Positions 4,351-31,480 of a DNA stretch of 43,674 bases are shown here, piece by piece. Position 1 is the first letter of the stretch; every line of letters starts with the position of its first letter. The DNA is from a virus. The DNA lies in UHGV virus genome UHGV-1379542. The stretch is one strand, 5' to 3'. The translations under genes and the position numbers were made by a program. The notes under the pieces were generated by a model, which searched no databases, was not told the origin of the DNA, and saw only the letters and a list, made by a program, of their open reading frames with translations.

Positions 4351-5181
4351 ATGGCACAAGGAACAACAACTAAAAGTACACAAATCGTTCCAGAAGTATT
4401 AAAACCTATGATGCAAGCAGAATTAGATAAGAAATTGAGATTTGCACAATTTGCAGACATTGACAGTACATTAGTAGGACAACCAGGTGACACTTTAACT
4501 TTCCCTGCATTTGTTTACAGTGGTGATGCTACAGTAGTACCTGAAGGACAAAAAATTCCTGTAGACAAAATTGAAACTAACAGACGTGAAGCTAAAATTC
4601 ATAAAATCGGTAAAGGTACTGATATTACTGATGAAGCTTTATTGTCTGGTTATGGCGACCCTCAAGGAGAAGCAGTACGTCAACATGGTTTAGCTATTGC
4701 TAACAAAGTAGATAATGACGTATTAGAAGCTTTACGAGGTACTAAATTAACTGTAAGTGCAGACATCGGCACATTAGCAGGCTTAGAAGCTGCAATTGAC
4801 ACATTCGATGATGAAGATTTAGAACCAATGGTATTATTCATTAATCCTAAAGACGCTGGTAAGTTACGCTCTAGTGCTTCAGATAACTTCACTCGAGCTA
4901 CTGAATTAGGCGATAACATTATCGTTAAAGGTGCATTTGGGGAAGCGTTAGGAGCTGTTATTGTACGTTCTAAGAAATTAGATGAGGGCGAAGCTATTTT
5001 AGCTAAACGTGGTGCAGTTAAACTTATCACTAAACGTGATTTCTTCTTAGAAACTGACCGTGATCCTTCAACTAAAACAACTGCTTTATACAGTGATAAA
5101 CACTATGTAGCATACTTATATGACGAATCTAAAGCAGTTAAGGTAACTAAAGGCGCTGGAACTACAGACTCAGGTGCATAA
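4351..5181 (+). CDS. major capsid protein
   Basis: 276 aa. Strong RBS. Position between the scaffold and head-tail joining genes. Gly/Ala/Val-rich composition typical of an MCP. Confidence 0.75.
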   Translation: MAQGTTTKSTQIVPEVLKPMMQAELDKKLRFAQFADIDSTLVGQPGDTLTFPAFVYSGDATVVPEGQKIPVDKIETNRREAKIHKIGKGTDITDEALLSGYGDPQGEAVRQHGLAIANKVDNDVLEALRGTKLTVSADIGTLAGLEAAIDTFDDEDLEPMVLFINPKDAGKLRSSASDNFTRATELGDNIIVKGAFGEALGAVIVRSKKLDEGEAILAKRGAVKLITKRDFFLETDRDPSTKTTALYSDKHYVAYLYDESKAVKVTKGAGTTDSGA

Positions 5182-5197
5182 AAGGAGGTAGTGACGT

Positions 5198-5488
5198 ATG
5201 TATAAAGTAATCGAGTATTTCGAAGACTTACAAGATGACAACTACGAGTATAACGTAGGAAAAACGTTCCCTCGTAAAGGTTTAAATGTAAGTGATGAGC
5301 GATTAACTGAACTATCCACAAAAGAAAACCGTCAGAATAAGCCCCTTATTGAACGTGTAGAGAGCGATAAAGACTTAAAAGGTATGAAAGTATCTGAGTT
5401 AAGAGAACTCGCTAAAGAACGTGAAATAGAGGGCTTTTCTAGTATGAAAAAAGATGAACTCGTTGAAGCATTAGGAAGTGTTAAGTAA
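5198..5488 (+). CDS. Rho termination factor N-terminal domain-containing protein
   Basis: The C-terminal motif MKVSELRELAKEREIEGFSSMKKDELVEAL resembles the Rho_N helix-hairpin. Small ORF with RBS aaggagg. Confidence 0.5.
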   Translation: MYKVIEYFEDLQDDNYEYNVGKTFPRKGLNVSDERLTELSTKENRQNKPLIERVESDKDLKGMKVSELRELAKEREIEGFSSMKKDELVEALGSVK

Positions 5489-5802
5489 TGAACGCACAAG
5501 ACGTTAAATTATTAAATAATCTTTCACTCGATGATACTTCAAATGACGAAACAATCGAATTACTTATTGAAAAGTATCTGAATGTAGCTGAAGAATATTG
5601 TAATCAAACATTCAATAGGAAGTCATTACCTAGTAATGTAGAGAAATTCATTGCTAACTGTATTAAACAAGGTACGACTAGCAATATTTCTTCACGTACT
5701 ATGGGTACTGTGAGCTACACTTTCGTTACTGATCTACCTAAGGAAACATACGGTTGCCTTAAACCATTTAGACGCTTACGTTGGACTGGTTATCATGTTT
5801 AA
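5488..5802 (+). CDS. head-tail connector protein (gp6-like)
   Basis: 104 aa. Start overlaps the previous stop (ATGA). Conserved position. Confidence 0.55.
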   Translation: MNAQDVKLLNNLSLDDTSNDETIELLIEKYLNVAEEYCNQTFNRKSLPSNVEKFIANCIKQGTTSNISSRTMGTVSYTFVTDLPKETYGCLKPFRRLRWTGYHV

Positions 5803-8429: not shown

Positions 8430-11400
8430 ATGAATAAAAACTTTATGGCTCGTATATCGGCGATCATTACAGATTTCCAACGGAATATCAGAAAAGCTCA
8501 ACGTATGGCAAAAACTGAAATACCCGATGAAATCGAAACACAAGTCGATGCCAACATAAGTAAATTTAAACGAGCCTTAAACACTGCAAAAGCAATGGCT
8601 CAACGTTGGCGAGAACATACCGTTGATATAGACGGTAACAACAACCCTATCAAACGAGCAATTGCAGTAGTTAAAGAGAAATTACAGCAATTAAGAGATA
8701 AAGAAGTAGACATAAAAGGGAATAACAATCCCTTAAAACGTTCAGTATTAGGTGCTAAGGCTATGTTGGCAACCTTACATGATAAAACGGTAAAAGTTAA
8801 CTTTGATACAAGGGGAATGACAAGAGCTCAAGTATTAACTAGAGCTTTAAGTCAGTCTTTAGATGAATACGGCGACAAAATGGATAGATTAGCTACTCGT
8901 ATTCGTACATTTGGTACTGTGTTTGGACAACAAATCAAAGGTGTGCTAATCGCTAGTTTTCAAGGTCTTATTCCTATTATAGCTGGTTTAGTACCCGCCA
9001 TCATGGCAGTAGCTAACGCATTAGGTGTAGTTGCTGGTGGTGCATTAGGTGTAGCTGGTGCATTTGGTATCGCTGCAGGTGGTGCGTTTGCATTTGGTGC
9101 TATGGCAGTAAGTGCAATTAAGATGTTGAGTGATGGAACGTTAGAAGCAACAGCACAAACTAAACGTTATGAGGCTTCTTTAGAAGAAGTTCAATCAACA
9201 TGGGAAAGTATTATCAAACAAAACCAAGCACAAATCTTCAATACGTTATCTAACGCTTTAGACACTGTTAACGTAGCTTTAGGGCGTATGAAACCATTCT
9301 TAGCAGGTATCTCTAAAGGAATGGAACAAGCGTCACAGAGTGTCTTAAAATGGGCTCAAAACAGTCAAACCGCCAGCAAATTCTTTAACATGATGAATAC
9401 AACAGGCGTTAAGACATTCAACACATTATTAAGTGCTGCAGGACGTTTTGGTGACGGACTTATTAATGTGTTCACGCAGTTAGGTCCACTATTCTTATGG
9501 ACTGCTAAAGGTTTAGATAATTTAGGTAAGAAGTTCCAAAACTGGGCTAACAGCGTAGCAGGTCAGAACGCTATTAAATCATTTATTGAATACACTAAAA
9601 CTAATTTACCTAAAATAGGTCAAATATTTGGCAATGTATTCATGGGTATTGGTAACTTGATGAAAGCATTTGCTCAAAACAGTTCTAATATCTTTGATTG
9701 GCTAGTTAAAATGACTGCTAAGTTTAGAGAATGGTCTGAACAAGTTGGTAAATCTGAAGGGTTTAAAAAGTTTGTTCAGTATGTACAAGAGAATGGTCCA
9801 GTCATTATGGATCTAATCGGTAATATTGTAAGAGTATTGGTTGCGTTTGGTACTGCAATGGCGCCAATAGCAAGTGTGATATTAAAAGTAGTAACAGCAT
9901 TAGCTGGTTTCATAGCTAAATTGTTTGAAACACACCCAGCTATAGCTCGAATGGTTGGTATAGGTATGATACTCGGTGGTATGTTGTGGGCTTTACTAGC
10001 ACCAATCATCGCAGTAGGTACATTATTAGAAACATTCTTTAGTAGTAGTCTATTCAAAGCTATGACTAAAATGTTAGCTTTTGCTAGAAACACTCAAATA
10101 CTTAGAAGCGCGTTAAACCTAGTGAAAATCGCATTTAGACTTCTCATGAGCCCTATTAGTACAATTATGCGTATCTTACCTATGTTAAGTGGTGCTTTCC
10201 AAGCATTGGGTGTAGCTATAGGCGCGATTTCATGGCCTGTATTGGCTATCATAGGCGTTATCGTTGCTTTAATAGGTATTATTGTTTGGTTATGGAAAAC
10301 GAACGAGAATTTCAGAAAAACTTGTGTTGAAGCTTGGAACACAATTAAAGATACGATAATGAACGCTGTAAAAACAGTGATTAACTGGTTTAATCAGTTC
10401 AGAGCGTCTATCGAACAAACGCTCCAACCAATTATGCCTATCTTACAAATGTTAGGACAAGTTGCAAACCAAGTTCTCGGCTTCTTATTCATCAGCCTCA
10501 TCAATGGTTTAGTAACTGCTTTCCAATCTCTTTGGACTGTGATTTCAGTAGTATTCACTGCGATAGGTGGAATACTACAAGCTGCTACGCAATTGATTTT
10601 CGGTTTGTTTACTGCATTAATACAGCTCCTTACTGGAGATTTTTCTGGTGCTTGGCTAACTTTACAAACTACGATTTCTAATGTAATGACTACGATTTGG
10701 AATACTTTAGTATCAATTTGGAACCAGATTTCTAACTTCATATTCAACGTTTTGAACAGAATACTTGGTACTAATATCACAAGTTGGAATCAAATTTGGT
10801 CTGTGATTTCAGGCGCAGTTACTAGAATTTGGAACACGGTGTCAAGTTGGTTTTCACGTGTAGTTTCAACCGTTGCTCAAAAAATGATGCAAGCACTCAG
10901 TCGTATCATTTCTGGTGGTGCACAATGGGTTTCAAGTATCATTTCTGCAATGAGTAGATTTTTACAAGCAGTAGTTAGTGGTTTCTTCAGAGTGGTTGGC
11001 GCTGTTGGAAATGGCATGACAACTGCATTAAATCGAGCTCGAAGTTTTATTGGAGGTTTCTTTCAAGCAGGTGTTGATATGATAGCTGGAATGATTAGAG
11101 GTATCGTTCAAAAAGCTAAAGATTTAGCAGCAGCTGCATGGAACGCTGCAAAAGGTGCATTGAACGCTGCAAAAAGTGCTTTGGATAGTCATTCTCCTTC
11201 TCGTAAATTCATACAACTAGGTAATGATAGTATGACTGGATTAGGTATGGGTATCTCTGAATATGCAGGAAAAGCTGCAAGAGAAAGTAAATTAGCGGCG
11301 TTAAAAGTTATGGATGCCTTCAACGCAGACTTAAAACCGGACTTTTTAGAAGAAGGATTGGCTGGTTTAGGAAATTCTTTCGATGCACATATGAGTAAAG

Positions 11401-11534
11401 ACGTACGCCATAGCATGCAAGAGAACAATAAACCTATCGTCAACGTGACTGTTCGCAATGAGTCAGATATACCAGCTATTAAATCATACATTGAAGATTC
11501 CAACTCAAAAGACGCAAGTTTCGGATTATTTTAA
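8430..11534 (+). CDS. tail tape measure protein
   Basis: 1034 aa. Long hydrophobic/Gly-Ala-rich central segments and repeated W/F periodicity. Position after G/GT. Confidence 0.9.
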   Translation: MNKNFMARISAIITDFQRNIRKAQRMAKTEIPDEIETQVDANISKFKRALNTAKAMAQRWREHTVDIDGNNNPIKRAIAVVKEKLQQLRDKEVDIKGNNNPLKRSVLGAKAMLATLHDKTVKVNFDTRGMTRAQVLTRALSQSLDEYGDKMDRLATRIRTFGTVFGQQIKGVLIASFQGLIPIIAGLVPAIMAVANALGVVAGGALGVAGAFGIAAGGAFAFGAMAVSAIKMLSDGTLEATAQTKRYEASLEEVQSTWESIIKQNQAQIFNTLSNALDTVNVALGRMKPFLAGISKGMEQASQSVLKWAQNSQTASKFFNMMNTTGVKTFNTLLSAAGRFGDGLINVFTQLGPLFLWTAKGLDNLGKKFQNWANSVAGQNAIKSFIEYTKTNLPKIGQIFGNVFMGIGNLMKAFAQNSSNIFDWLVKMTAKFREWSEQVGKSEGFKKFVQYVQENGPVIMDLIGNIVRVLVAFGTAMAPIASVILKVVTALAGFIAKLFETHPAIARMVGIGMILGGMLWALLAPIIAVGTLLETFFSSSLFKAMTKMLAFARNTQILRSALNLVKIAFRLLMSPISTIMRILPMLSGAFQALGVAIGAISWPVLAIIGVIVALIGIIVWLWKTNENFRKTCVEAWNTIKDTIMNAVKTVINWFNQFRASIEQTLQPIMPILQMLGQVANQVLGFLFISLINGLVTAFQSLWTVISVVFTAIGGILQAATQLIFGLFTALIQLLTGDFSGAWLTLQTTISNVMTTIWNTLVSIWNQISNFIFNVLNRILGTNITSWNQIWSVISGAVTRIWNTVSSWFSRVVSTVAQKMMQALSRIISGGAQWVSSIISAMSRFLQAVVSGFFRVVGAVGNGMTTALNRARSFIGGFFQAGVDMIAGMIRGIVQKAKDLAAAAWNAAKGALNAAKSALDSHSPSRKFIQLGNDSMTGLGMGISEYAGKAARESKLAALKVMDAFNADLKPDFLEEGLAGLGNSFDAHMSKDVRHSMQENNKPIVNVTVRNESDIPAIKSYIEDSNSKDASFGLF

Positions 11535-26694: not shown

Positions 26695-26875
26695 GTGTCA
26701 AATACGTGTCAAAATAATTATAATCTTTTAGTTCTATTTAGAAAATAAATCTTTGAAAACACTGTACTTATGGCTATTTAGTTTTATTTAGAAATTTATT
26801 TTTATCCCTCCGTTTCCGTACTATAACGTTGATATGACGGGCTTTCGAGAGAGTAAGTGTCAAATAAGTGTCAAG
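26695..26875. repeat. attP-like region: tandem GTGTCAA(A/G) arm-type repeats at 26695-26715 and 26857-26875, flanking 22-nt direct repeats TAGTTYTATTTAGAAA at 26729-26750 and 26779-26800
   Basis: Direct repeats read from the sequence. Lies directly 3' of the integrase gene; the second pair overlaps the int stop codon at 26871-73. Confidence 0.5.
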
Positions 26876-27920
26876 AGAATATTTCTCTGACACGTTGGCC
26901 TTGCTCTTTTTTATGTTCTTCTAATAAATGTGAATACGTGTCTAACGTTTGTGATATAGTAGCGTGACCTAAACGTTTACTTATATACTCGATTGGTATG
27001 CCTTTAGATAGTAAGTAAGATGTGTGCGTATGTCTGAGTGAATAGGGAGTTATATTATTATCGTTTAATCCTATCACCTCTTTTGCTTTTCTGAATGCTT
27101 TACTTACTGATGTATGACTAACCGAGAATAACTTGCCATCAATTCTACGTGGCATTTTAGCTAATTTTGAATTTATGTGCATGATATCTTTTGAATTTAC
27201 TTCTACATCACGTTTTGAATTCTTTGTTTTCGTTCCAGGCAAATGAATTATGCCATTCGCTTTGTTTAGATCTTTGTAAGTCATATTGATGACATCGCTA
27301 TATCTTGCGCCAGTAATGCCTAATAGATATAGCAAAACATAACTTTCTTCATCTCTTTTCTTGAAATAATCTAGCAAGTTTAAATAGTCTTTTATCGTAA
27401 TAAACTTAAATTTCTCATCTTTAGCTTTTTCAGTCCCTTTGATATTTACATTATAAGTAGGGTCTTTCTTCAAATAGCCATCGTATAACGCGTCTCTAAT
27501 ACATCTAGCAAGACAACCGTGAACTTTTCTTACTGTTTCATCAGTGTGACCTTGTGCGTATTGATTTAAAAACTTTTGATACTCACTACGTGTGATATTT
27601 TTAACTAACATATTTTCTCCGAAATACTCACTGAATAATTTAATCGATCTTTCATACCAGTAGAATTGTTTGCTAGACAACTGTTTCTTGTTCTTAATTT
27701 TTATCCAGTCATCGTAGTAGTCAACGAATTTTTTATTATCTTCAATGTTGTTGCCATCTTCTAAATCTCTAATTAATTGTTGTGCTGCGTTTGTAGCCTC
27801 AGCTTTTGTTTTAAATCCAGATTTACGTTTTTTGCCAGATTTCAAACTAGGGTGTTTAACATCGTATTGCCATGATGAGCTTGTCTTATTTTTGCGTTTT
27901 GTTACTGTAAATGTTGCCAT
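26871..27920 (-). CDS. int: tyrosine integrase
   Basis: 349 aa. The C-terminal catalytic region carries R…HxxR…Y (…SLRHTHTSYLL…LGHATISQTLDTYSHLL). RBS aaggagg. Confidence 0.9.
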   Translation of the reverse strand: MATFTVTKRKNKTSSSWQYDVKHPSLKSGKKRKSGFKTKAEATNAAQQLIRDLEDGNNIEDNKKFVDYYDDWIKIKNKKQLSSKQFYWYERSIKLFSEYFGENMLVKNITRSEYQKFLNQYAQGHTDETVRKVHGCLARCIRDALYDGYLKKDPTYNVNIKGTEKAKDEKFKFITIKDYLNLLDYFKKRDEESYVLLYLLGITGARYSDVINMTYKDLNKANGIIHLPGTKTKNSKRDVEVNSKDIMHINSKLAKMPRRIDGKLFSVSHTSVSKAFRKAKEVIGLNDNNITPYSLRHTHTSYLLSKGIPIEYISKRLGHATISQTLDTYSHLLEEHKKEQGQRVREIFS

Positions 27921-27937: not shown

Positions 27938-27973
27938 AAAAAAGTAAAAAAATAATAAGGGTACTAGGTACCC
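27938..27973 (-). terminator. rho-independent terminator for lipoprotein gene (minus strand)
   Basis: Palindrome gggtac-tag-gtaccc (27959-73). The minus-strand run ttattattttttt follows it. Confidence 0.6.
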
Positions 27974-27978
27974 ATAAA

Positions 27979-28902
27979 TTATTGTTGTAATGCTTGTGAC
28001 TCATTTCTTGCTTTAGTTACGTCTTGTTTGAAACTATCATACGATTGGTTAGGACTAGATAATGCCATACCAGGCCCACCACCTATATGTTGAAATTTAT
28101 CCGGATTATTTTGAATGTTTTCTGTAAGTTTTTTAGCATTTAAATATTCTTGGTAACTAGGAGAGTTTGGGTCTTGTTGTTCGGATTGCTGATTATTACT
28201 TTGTGCTGTTTGCACTTGCTTACCTTGCGTACGTTCATTATTACCATTATTGTCTTGTGATTTGCCATTATCATTTTTAGATGTGCTTTCTGATTCGTTA
28301 TTCGCAACATCTTTATTGCCTTCTTTTGAACTACTAGCAGAATCGTTTGTAATATCATCTGCTGCAGAATAATCTACGGTCTTTAGTTTACTAATATTTA
28401 TTTTCTTGGTACCCAGTTTTTTACCCTCTGTGCCTTTAGTAGCTTTAAGTGTCACTTGCTTATCATTTTCTAATTCATAAGTAATAATACCTTTAGCAGT
28501 TTTACCTTTCTTAATTACATCATTGTTGTGTTTGTCCCATTCTTCGAATTTACCAGTATTAGGCGTTGGACCAACTTCAAGTTTACTTTCAGTATTTTCA
28601 CTATCTTGTGTAGTCTCCATCGACGATATCCAAACATTCATTGGTGTGATTTGTTCGTCCCCGTCTTTACTTTTAACTTCGTATTTAAAAGCTAATAGTT
28701 TCTTGCCATTATCCGAATCCTTATCATTAACTAAAAATGTATCTTTTATTTTTAAAACAGCTTGATCAAGGACTAAAGTATCATTAGTGAATTGTACTTT
28801 GTTTTCATCAACGGACGTCGACTTTTTTGAATCGTTATTGTTGTTGCTACATGCCGCTAAAACTAAGAAACAAGATAATAAAATAAATAAGACTTTTTTC
28901 AT
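27979..28902 (-). CDS. secreted lipoprotein (moron between int and repressor; candidate superinfection-exclusion protein)
   Basis: Start at MKKVLFILLSCFLVLAACSNN (signal peptide with lipobox LAAC) and RBS aggaga 8 nt upstream. The longer track start at 28947 lacks an RBS. The C-terminal half is low-complexity and N/Q/S/D-rich. Confidence 0.65.
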   Translation of the reverse strand: MKKVLFILLSCFLVLAACSNNNNDSKKSTSVDENKVQFTNDTLVLDQAVLKIKDTFLVNDKDSDNGKKLLAFKYEVKSKDGDEQITPMNVWISSMETTQDSENTESKLEVGPTPNTGKFEEWDKHNNDVIKKGKTAKGIITYELENDKQVTLKATKGTEGKKLGTKKINISKLKTVDYSAADDITNDSASSSKEGNKDVANNESESTSKNDNGKSQDNNGNNERTQGKQVQTAQSNNQQSEQQDPNSPSYQEYLNAKKLTENIQNNPDKFQHIGGGPGMALSSPNQSYDSFKQDVTKARNESQALQQ

Positions 28903-28957
28903 TTTACATTTCTCCTCTGAATAAATATTTATATTAAAGCGCCACAAAGGACGCTTA

Positions 28958-29569
28958 TTAAAACAGTTTTTGACTTGCTACAACTCTACCAATTATTTTA
29001 ACTTCGTCATCTTCTCCGTAAACTTGAGGTAAATGTTCTGGGTTGTTTGATTCTGGAATTAAGATAATTTGATTCTTGTTATATCTAACTCGTTTAACAG
29101 TAGCGTTATAACCATTAACCATAACGACGCCCAACTGACCATTTTCTACTATAGAATCTTTTTCGACTACAACTACATCGTTTTCTTGGAAAATTTTATC
29201 CATGCTATCGCCAGACACTCTCAAACCAAATTCTTCTTTGTCAGAATTAAGATTTTTAGTAGCGAAGTATATGTAATCAACTAAATTTTCTTCACTATAG
29301 ATAGGTAAGCCTGCAGATATTTTTGAAACAACTGGAATCTTTTTGACTGGTAGGGTTTCTAGTTGAGGTTGCTCGATATCCATAATTTCCTCTGGTTTAA
29401 TATTTAACCCTTTACAAATTTTGATGACATTTTCTACCTTAGCATTAAATACTCCTCTTTCTAAAATAGATCTAACAGTTGTATAAGCTAAACCAATTTC
29501 TTTTGAAAAAGCTTTTATACTCCCAGATTTCAATTCCATAAGTCGTTTTAAATCTTTTTCTTTAGTCAT
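28958..29569 (-). CDS. cI: cI-like repressor (XRE HTH + S24 LexA-like autopeptidase)
   Basis: 203 aa. N-terminal HTH. C-terminal Ser-Lys dyad context (…GLRVSGDSMDKIF… …VKRV…). Divergent from cro. Confidence 0.85.
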   Translation of the reverse strand: MTKEKDLKRLMELKSGSIKAFSKEIGLAYTTVRSILERGVFNAKVENVIKICKGLNIKPEEIMDIEQPQLETLPVKKIPVVSKISAGLPIYSEENLVDYIYFATKNLNSDKEEFGLRVSGDSMDKIFQENDVVVVEKDSIVENGQLGVVMVNGYNATVKRVRYNKNQIILIPESNNPEHLPQVYGEDDEVKIIGRVVASQKLF

Positions 29570-29601: not shown

Positions 29602-29630
29602 ATAATACCATGCGAAAAATCGTATATCAA
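29602..29630 (-). promoter_or_regulatory. leftward repressor promoter (-35 TTGATA, 17-nt spacer, -10 TATTAT on minus strand) with the degenerate operator O3 in its spacer
   Basis: Minus strand reads TTGATA-tacgatttttcgcatgg-TATTAT upstream of the cI RBS gaggt. The operator-like tgcgaaaaatcgta lies at 29611-29625. Confidence 0.5.
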
Positions 29631-29664: not shown

Positions 29665-29693
29665 TTGACTTAGTACGAAAATTCGTATACAAT
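29665..29693 (+). promoter_or_regulatory. rightward early promoter (-35 TTGACT, 17-nt spacer, -10 TACAAT) with operator O1 TACGAAaaTTCGTA (29674-29687) in the spacer
   Basis: Read directly from the sequence. A perfect 6-2-6 inverted repeat sits inside the spacer. Confidence 0.6.
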
Positions 29694-30711: not shown

Positions 30712-30723
30712 GGAGTGATAGCA

Positions 30724-30933
30724 ATGGAATACATTGGATTTGCGGACGCTATCGAGTTTGTGAAAATAAGTGGAATTTCTAAAAACGATTTAGAAAAGCA
30801 CGTTTATAGCAATAAAGAGTTCCAAGAGAAATGTATGTACAGATTTGGCAAGAATCATAAACGCTACATCAAGATTAGACCGGCAATTGACTTTATAGAA
30901 CAAAAATTAATGGTGTCAGAAACGGCACTTTAG
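30724..30933 (+). CDS. hypothetical protein (possible small DNA-binding protein)
   Basis: 69 aa from ATG 30724, with RBS aggag 8 nt upstream. Confidence 0.35.
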   Translation: MEYIGFADAIEFVKISGISKNDLEKHVYSNKEFQEKCMYRFGKNHKRYIKIRPAIDFIEQKLMVSETAL

Positions 30934-30990: not shown

Positions 30991-31167
30991 ATGAAGTACT
31001 TACTAAGTTACATGACGATGTTTATCGCAATGATTATCACATTACTTTTAGGAGGTGGTTTCTTTACGGTAATAGCATTTTCAATGTTAACCCTTATTTT
31101 CAGCAGTTTCTTCTGGGAGAAGTGGCTTGAGATAACAAAAAAGACTGAAACTTGCGCCAACAAGTAA
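30991..31167 (+). CDS. small membrane protein
   Basis: 58 aa with two hydrophobic helices and RBS aagggtgg. Below the ORF-track size cut-off. Confidence 0.3.
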   Translation: MKYLLSYMTMFIAMIITLLLGGGFFTVIAFSMLTLIFSSFFWEKWLEITKKTETCANK

Positions 31168-31228: not shown

Positions 31229-31480
31229 ATGAAACATAAACTTTTAAAAATAGCCAATGATTTAAATAAATTAATTTTGCATAGTGATGAAGAAGTGAAA
31301 GCAGAATTTCAAAAATATTATGAGGGGGAAGTTAGTATCACCTTTTGGCACTACTCTAAAAAATATGAAAGTAACTGTAATCATCTAAGTTTCTATGAAT
31401 TTCACACAGATGAAGAATTACAGAAATATTTTGAATTAGCAAAAGAAGTTATTGCAGGGGAGTGTTTTATTGATGAGTAA
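31229..31480 (+). CDS. hypothetical protein
   Basis: 83 aa with RBS acggaggt. Confidence 0.4.
   Translation: MKHKLLKIANDLNKLILHSDEEVKAEFQKYYEGEVSITFWHYSKKYESNCNHLSFYEFHTDEELQKYFELAKEVIAGECFIDE

Follow-up and report, generated by a model that had tools for sequence, protein, structure and literature searches.

The locus considered here raises the question of what a lipoprotein encoded between the repressor and the integrase of a temperate phage does for the phage or for its lysogen. The window, UHGV-1379542, is a stretch of 43,674 bp that constitutes the complete genome of a temperate siphovirus of Staphylococcus epidermidis, genus Rockefellervirus, and the lipoprotein gene lies at 27979..28902 on the minus strand (307 codons plus stop, with the ATG at 28902 and the stop at 27979-27981). 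An earlier note on this DNA proposed that the gene is a moron coding for an Ltp/Sie-like superinfection-exclusion factor. We consider a role in superinfection exclusion, acting after adsorption and protecting the lysogen at the level of the envelope, to be a plausible reading with a probability of roughly 40%. The slot between integrase and repressor is used for exclusion genes in other temperate phages of Gram-positive hosts, including sie2009 of lactococcal P335 phages, ltp of TP-J34, and orf203 of Sfi21, and the position of the window gene agrees with the earlier claim that a lysogeny-module lipoprotein gene occupies this same slot.

We envisage a protein fixed by its lipid to the outside of the cytoplasmic membrane, in which the DUF5067 beta-sandwich lies near the membrane surface and is followed by a flexible spacer of ∼60 residues that could carry a helical tail into the cell wall. 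The leftward lysogeny operon would run in the order repressor, lipoprotein, terminator hairpin, and integrase, and with its gene in mid-operon the lipoprotein is most likely made continuously in lysogens along with the repressor, whereas the hairpin would limit read-through into int. The lysogen would be guarded against other phages at the point where the tail tip or tape measure reaches the membrane and DNA enters, and the block would come after adsorption because the sandwich would be out of reach of the wall surface. In the window, the long ORF at 8430..11534 probably encodes the tape-measure protein, judging from its size and position. Functionally, the effect would amount to the kind of exclusion known from Ltp or Sie2009, achieved through an unrelated fold. 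Nothing found in the analysis contradicts such a function, and it is favoured by the probable co-expression with the repressor, by the predicted location outside the cytoplasm and close to the membrane, and by a precedent within the fold superfamily (Mpr, below). Homologues are present in prophages of ∼15 staphylococcal species, which we take to include human-, animal-, and food-associated ones, and this spread fits a role centred on the phage better than one in host-specific virulence.

Architecture of the lipoprotein

The N-terminus, MKKVLFILLSCFLVLAAC, has the form of a textbook lipoprotein signal, with MKK, 14 hydrophobic residues, and LAAC18 (MKK-VLFILLSCFLV-LAAC18). The signal peptide MKKVLFILLSCFLVLAA and the predicted lipidated Cys18 are encoded at 28849..28902 (minus strand), and L15, A17, and C18 are unchanged across 27 homologues from ∼15 Staphylococcus species. 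Lipoprotein signals are recognised by a charged n-region, a hydrophobic h-region, and a [LVI][ASTVI][GAS]C box with the cysteine at about position 15 to 35, as in PROSITE pattern PS51257, and the window protein fits this pattern. The LAAC lipobox described in the earlier note can be read directly, and by this reading the gene product is predicted to be a surface lipoprotein.

The anchor is followed by a DUF5067 beta-sandwich (amino acids [aa] 34-180; 28363..28803, minus strand), which is delineated by Pfam, by its match to Protein Data Bank (PDB) entry 3QFG, by a structural model, and by the ratio of nonsynonymous to synonymous substitution rates (dN/dS). When residues 20-190 are searched alone, they match DUF5067 (PF16729) with 60.0 bits and an E value of 2.8e-16, spanning positions 3-126 of the 126-position profile and well above the Pfam gathering threshold of 27 bits for this family; a precomputed PF16729 match is also on record for a protein with 99% identity. 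The full-length protein matches no Pfam family at E values up to 1, probably because the low-complexity tail triggers HMMER's bias filter. The window protein matches 3QFG at an E value of 1.4e-24 (38% identity), and the AlphaFold2 model has a predicted local distance difference test score (pLDDT) of ∼90 for residues 34-180. Foldseek superimposes this model on 3QFG with an E value of 1e-15, a template modeling (TM) score of 0.90, and a root mean square deviation of 1.9 Å over 144 columns. Purifying selection on the sandwich is strong, with dN/dS of 0.049 at a dS of 0.61 and 0.086 at a dS of 0.25. Only ∼15 residues separate the lipid anchor from the DUF5067 domain, and the domain would therefore sit on the membrane surface.

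The closest structural relative, 3QFG, is an uncharacterised lipoprotein of Staphylococcus aureus NCTC 8325. Like the window protein, it belongs to the DUF5067 family, contains a W..H..D.IKKGKTA motif, and has a charged low-complexity tail after the domain. It differs in being without the conserved helical tail module, whereas the window protein is phage-borne, is encoded in a lysogeny operon, and is fused to the tether and tail of a second lipoprotein. No assignment of 3QFG to a prophage or to a function was found in the literature. More distant Foldseek matches include Enterococcus faecalis NP_814968.1, Bacillus subtilis YxkC (7e-6) and YcdA (2e-5), Clostridioides difficile CD630_09570, and Mycobacterium tuberculosis MPT63 (1e-3), and for YxkC there is a modelled complex with the penicillin-binding protein DacA. 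Among viral proteins, the fold neighbours (all models) come from uncultured siphoviruses and Paenibacillus phage C7Cdelta (DUF5067 and DUF4352 proteins) and from phages of Rhodococcus, Microbacterium, and Corynebacterium (lipoproteins or uncharacterised proteins); the DUF4352 proteins in BFVD are matched by Foldseek at 2.5e-4 to 3.4e-4. DUF5067 proteins with ∼40% identity are also coded by three Exiguobacterium plasmids.

The C-terminal ∼120 residues had been described as low-complexity throughout, and this is correct for residues 186-250 but not for residues 250-306. The former are 52% N/S/Q and predicted to be disordered (pLDDT ∼33), and they include an N/S/Q-rich spacer (aa 186-243; 28174..28347, minus strand) that is hypervariable among homologues. 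The latter 57 residues are predicted to form a helix-loop(GGGPG)-helix with a pLDDT of ∼80, and sequence conservation and the model together define a C-terminal module of aa 244-307 (27982..28173, minus strand) that is common to other phage lipoproteins. At least two alternative tail motifs occur within the homologue family. No Pfam family is matched by the tail module, and homology searches with the 63-aa tail, including phmmer, yielded a handful of staphylococcal proteins and no tie to a known domain; an exhaustive phmmer search of 1.84 billion representative proteins found the module only in staphylococcal proteins, in 10 clusters. We also considered whether the protein might act as a decoy, but comparison of each part with the phage's own tail, tape-measure, and other genes gave a best E value no better than 0.4, and this idea was rejected.

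The two halves have separate relatives. A 187-aa lipoprotein that has the DUF5067 domain only matches residues 1-186 at 94% identity, and residues 190-307 are 91% identical to gp31 of phage phiIPLA5, a 181-aa lipoprotein with a signal peptide, a charged spacer, the same tail, and nothing more. Four S. epidermidis prophages (L008 to L011) carry both types as tandem genes between the repressor and the integrase, each with its own lipobox (e.g., 5001-5564 and 5588-6202 in L009), and tail-only lipoproteins adjoin int in the S. aureus phages phiMR11, 80, 52A, 55, and 96. DNA identity with phiIPLA5 spans the region from int to about position 28296 of the window and reaches 98.5% over int and the tail-encoding half. 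This pattern of fusion and fission places the recombination junction inside the spacer, and the window lipoprotein, as judged from these alignments, unites in one fused chain two lipoproteins that other prophages encode separately. The sandwich and the tethered tail probably act together in one process, since they are fused here and encoded by adjacent genes in L008 to L011. In phiIPLA5 (locus L006, 1780-2454 and 3312-3857), gp32, a 158-aa protein without a lipobox, replaces the DUF5067 part; the phiIPLA5 repressor is annotated only as a feature 'similar to repressor protein' and not as a coding sequence.

Position in the lysogeny operon

The genomic context of the gene is constant. We collected 65 related loci from IMG/VR and scored the neighbouring genes against a set of integrase, repressor, and ImmA protease sequences. 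Wherever the downstream flank is long enough (62 loci), a same-strand integrase gene follows in every case, and these integrases are evenly divided between the tyrosine and serine types (31 each). Upstream, also on the same strand, there is an S24-type repressor in 26 loci and an ImmA protease (of an XRE/ImmA pair) in 38, such that one or the other is present in 64/65. All four combinations of repressor and integrase type are seen, and the lipoprotein occupies the same slot in 65/65 loci. The gene thus does not look like an occasional add-on, as it keeps its position whatever the type of integrase or repressor.

The spacing of the genes bears on how the lipoprotein is expressed. In phage vB_SepS_48 the ImmA and lipoprotein genes share 4 nt, and in phages 88 and phiMR11 the gap from the ImmA gene to the lipoprotein gene is 17 to 18 nt; there is therefore no space for a promoter in these relatives. 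No convincing promoter of its own was found for the window gene, the only candidates being 9/12 matches to the consensus that occur at background frequency (16 found versus 16.8 expected). A TTAATA-17-TTTAAT site picked out by eye in the 55-nt gap past cI was rejected, as such matches are at background in AT-rich DNA. The best promoter-like site for the leftward (lysogenic) transcript is TTGATA-17-TATTAT with an extended TG (29602..29630, minus strand), although it is only a 10/12 consensus match, and a rightward promoter-like site at 29665-29693 diverges from it. Directly 3' of the repressor stop codon, folding predicts a small hairpin with a 7-bp stem (AGCGUCC...GGCGCUU; 28937..28956, minus strand), which has no good U-run and is not called by the terminator scan; it is kept with a different loop in prophage L009 (∼4951-4972) and may be a partial attenuator. 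The lipoprotein gene is best described, from gene order and spacing, as the second gene of a lysogenic repressor operon and a fixed core member of it, and not as a self-contained moron. The moron status assigned in the earlier note is accordingly one that we do not retain: the gene does have a terminator, but it has no convincing promoter, the corresponding gaps in relatives are -4 to 18 nt, and the slot is constant across the loci.

The terminator itself is a hairpin of the form GGGTAC-CTA-GTACCC followed by a T-run (27938..27973, minus strand), which separates the lipoprotein gene from the ribosome-binding site of int. A terminator scan calls the stem-loop at 27973..27959, followed by TTATTATTTTTTT. 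Taken alone, the window hairpin is thermodynamically weak (-9.8 kcal/mol, z -0.69). We nonetheless uphold it as a terminator, as the earlier note had it, because of the comparative data: a hairpin GGGTA(G/C)-loop-(C/G)TACCC followed by TTATTATTTTTT is present in 57/65 loci, irrespective of whether the integrase is of the tyrosine or serine type, and the sixth stem pair co-varies, being G-C in 48 loci and C-G in 9 with no mismatches, among 20 different loop sequences. The distance from the hairpin end to the int start codon is 16 to 40 nt in every hairpin-bearing locus, and the structure resembles a conserved element that insulates int or marks a module junction next to it.

The immediate neighbours of the lipoprotein gene in the window are a cI-like repressor with helix-turn-helix and S24 autopeptidase domains directly upstream (28958..29569, minus strand; Peptidase_S24 at 5e-27 and HTH_26 at 1e-6) and a tyrosine integrase directly downstream (26871..27920, minus strand; Phage_integrase at 1.3e-18). 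These three adjacent genes are the only leftward genes of substance in the genome, the others being rightward, and their shared strand agrees with the position between integrase and repressor that was originally described. The minus-strand assignment and the presence of a dedicated ribosome-binding site are likewise correct; the site, AGAGGAGA (28911..28918, minus strand), was read from the sequence and lies 9 nt before the ATG. A longer open reading frame (ORF) with a TTG start at 28947 was discarded, as 26/26 homologues begin at MKK instead. No excisionase was recognised at the locus, in agreement with the earlier note, or among six small early ORFs, using Pfam and PHROGs scans, in which these ORFs fell only into PHROGs without a known function. 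We note that the small early ORFs past the antirepressor at 30715-30933 (72 aa), 30991-31167, and 31229-31480 (plus strand) belong to PHROGs 5920, 5815, and 3119, which have no assigned function, and that a DUF771 gene occupies the corresponding early region of related prophages (L008 1225-1542).

The lipoprotein matches PHROG 5610 at 3e-123, and public phage records already contain its sequence under the labels 'hypothetical' or 'DUF5067 domain-containing'. Over the 3.2 kb surrounding the gene, the window is 99.9% identical to phage PG-2021_91, which encodes a 100% identical lipoprotein, and 99.6% identical to vB_SepS_BE21. What is new here is the domain dissection, the evidence for fusion and fission, the invariant operon slot, and the co-varying int-proximal terminator. 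Two database entries carry evident mis-annotations of homologues, as 'terminase large subunit' in PP971698.1 (Pel11) and as 'osmosensitive K+ channel histidine kinase' in KY653120.1 (IME1348_01). An S. epidermidis entry filed as a plasmid, NZ_CP121510.1, codes for a DUF5067 domain with 94% identity; at 44,931 bp it is as large as a phage genome, and it probably represents a circular or excised member of the window phage's group.

Comparison with known exclusion and resistance proteins

Ltp of Streptococcus thermophilus phage TP-J34, which blocks DNA injection, is likewise a lipoprotein of the lysogeny module, and the post-adsorption membrane step proposed here is the same. The ltp gene lies between int and the repressor gene and is expected to be expressed in the lysogen, and the Ltp protein is made up of tandem helix-turn-helix-like repeats. 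The window protein differs in that it has no sequence or profile match to Ltp and is predicted to consist of a beta-sandwich and a helical hairpin. The Sie2009-type proteins of lactococcal P335 phages and orf203 of Sfi21 are similar in the repressor-integrase slot of their genes and in the envelope location of their products. These proteins are anchored by an N-terminal transmembrane helix; the window protein is anchored by its lipobox, unlike the uncleaved transmembrane helix of the Sie2009 type. By the Pfam and PADLOC profiles searched, the window lipoprotein matches no known exclusion family. Llp of coliphage T5 inactivates the outer-membrane receptor FhuA, according to a preprint (bioRxiv 10.1101/2022.06.28.497910), and it too is a phage-encoded lipoprotein that prevents superinfection, but it is small, acts in a Gram-negative host, comes from a lytic phage, and has no similarity to the window protein.

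The closest functional precedent is Mpr of Mycobacterium smegmatis: in vivo, resistance to phage D29 depends on its extracytoplasmic DUF4352 domain, and escape mutations map to a minor tail protein (PMC9262609, PMC12596739). Mpr and the DUF4352 lipoproteins of temperate mycobacteriophages (Stink gp33 and Fionnbharth gp44) fall into the same MPT63-like beta-sandwich superfamily as the window protein, although at the fold level only, and Mpr differs in its Pfam family (PF11611), its cytoplasmic nuclease segment, and its host phylum. Some sequence connection is provided by gp44 of mycobacteriophage Fionnbharth (L012 2923-3444, minus strand), whose gene adjoins the integrase and whose product matches DUF4352 at 9e-28 and DUF5067 at a sub-threshold 9e-4; in an hhalign comparison of the lipoprotein family alignment with gp44, the lipobox alone was aligned. 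The literature treats Fionnbharth gp44 as a soluble DUF4352 nucleotide hydrolase, and we note that its N-terminus (..AIGLSAC..) is of the lipoprotein type. The protein is probably a lipoprotein located outside the cytoplasm, which would be odd beside its proposed ATP/GTP-dependent activity.

Exclusion weighed against other roles

Several observations weigh against a role in exclusion. Literature searches found no function assigned to DUF5067 and no functional data on the S. aureus lipoproteins SAUSA300_0769 and SAUSA300_1436, and the PADLOC-DB v2 defence models gave no match at E values up to 1 with the whole protein or with either half. Pfam Lipoprotein_Ltp is not matched by the whole protein or the halves at E values up to 1, the predicted fold is a DUF5067/MPT63-like beta-sandwich, and the 'Ltp/Sie-like' family label proposed earlier is not supported. 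NCBIfam matches (TrsH/TraH, EexN, SA0632, and others) involve the signal peptide only, fall far below cut-offs, and were rejected. The strong conservation of the domain suggests that it binds something conserved, and this partner might just as well belong to the host envelope and have nothing to do with phage entry. A chromosomal DUF5067 lipoprotein, SAUSA300_0769, is listed apart from phage and plasmid ones (PMC5020093), 3QFG is another S. aureus DUF5067 protein, and the domain also occurs on Exiguobacterium plasmids, such that the DUF5067 fold is not dedicated to phage defence. The fold neighbours YxkC, with its modelled DacA complex, and YcdA would point toward cell-wall physiology. Finally, Mpr is a distant precedent, linked by fold-level likeness and a sub-threshold sequence bridge, and in Mpr domain swaps Stink gp33 restored resistance but Fionnbharth gp44 did not (PMC12596739). 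On closely related phages, nothing about the lipoprotein gene was found in the literature, and the same searches found no characterised superinfection-exclusion protein of staphylococcal phages.

In an alternative reading, the protein would be a lysogenic-conversion or envelope-physiology factor, one that binds a conserved host component such as a penicillin-binding protein, lipoteichoic acid, or a wall-building enzyme. The altered wall or surface would then benefit the lysogen through fitness, colonisation, or stress tolerance, and any effects on phages would be incidental. We regard this as possible but on balance doubtful. It is favoured by a domain that is highly conserved and not diversifying, by the chromosomal DUF5067 lipoproteins of S. 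aureus (3QFG and SAUSA300_0769), and by the resemblance to YxkC and YcdA. A lipoprotein from the same slot, SAUSA300_1436 (phiSLT ORF144-like), has also been detected in the USA300 exoproteome (PMC5727369), indicating that such phage lipoproteins are made in ordinary growth, although this is an analogy only because ORF144 has just the signal peptide and general architecture in common. However, the slot is the same in phages of many staphylococcal species whose niches differ, whereas conversion genes are usually patchy and niche-specific; the profile matches include no adhesin, enzyme, or toxin signature; and the tail module, with its 10 clusters among 1.84 billion representative proteins, occurs in staphylococcal phage lipoproteins and nowhere else.

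The invariant position directly upstream of int raises the separate prospect that the gene serves the phage's own cycle, either by keeping progeny virions from being lost to lysing cells and debris, as Llp does for T5, or in lysogeny establishment or int regulation, with the gene and its terminator mainly as an insulator or regulatory spacer for int. The co-varying hairpin 16 to 40 nt before int with either integrase family and the 98.5% DNA identity of int and the tail-encoding half with phiIPLA5 are in keeping with this, but a mere regulatory spacer would not hold a 150-residue domain at a dN/dS of 0.05 to 0.09 together with an invariant lipobox. Furthermore, phiIPLA5, which is virulent and repressor-defective and has lost the DUF5067 part, still plates, so the domain is not essential for lytic growth, and we think a role of this kind improbable. 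Less probable by far is a defence resembling that of Mpr, in which the sandwich would be an oligomerisation scaffold for degrading or trapping incoming phage DNA at the membrane and not a steric block. The fold superfamily is common to the window protein and Mpr DUF4352, and Mpr likewise combines a membrane anchor, a low-complexity stretch, and a sandwich outside the cytoplasm (PMC9262609). Yet the lipoprotein is predicted to lie wholly outside the membrane and hence has no cytoplasmic or transmembrane part to reach DNA, the Mpr nuclease maps to the N-terminal 60 residues, which have no counterpart in the window protein (PMC9262609), and there is no direct Pfam match to DUF4352 at E values up to 1.

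Superinfection exclusion remains our preferred reading, as a well-defined and cheaply testable hypothesis and not yet a discovery; were the protein an envelope-physiology factor instead, the gene would be an ordinary accessory gene. The order of repressor, lipoprotein, hairpin, and integrase, which does not depend on the integrase family, is a useful landmark for annotating the ends of staphylococcal prophages. If the exclusion reading is true, it would give a function to DUF5067, a family with a crystal structure since 2011. A broader and more speculative proposal, which we hold to be rather unlikely, is that DUF5067 lipoproteins and tethered helical tails are the missing exclusion system of staphylococcal temperate phages. 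They would then represent a new exclusion family, with an MPT63-like sandwich at the membrane and a wall-spanning tether, unrelated in structure to Ltp and Sie2009 and linked by evolution to the DUF4352 lipoproteins encoded next to integrases in actinobacterial phages; if true, there would be a single ancient class of envelope defence, widespread among prophages of Firmicutes and Actinobacteria. Exclusion by these lipoproteins would bear on gaps in the host range of temperate and therapeutic phages on lysogenic strains of S. epidermidis and S. aureus, and on the barriers to transduction between strains.

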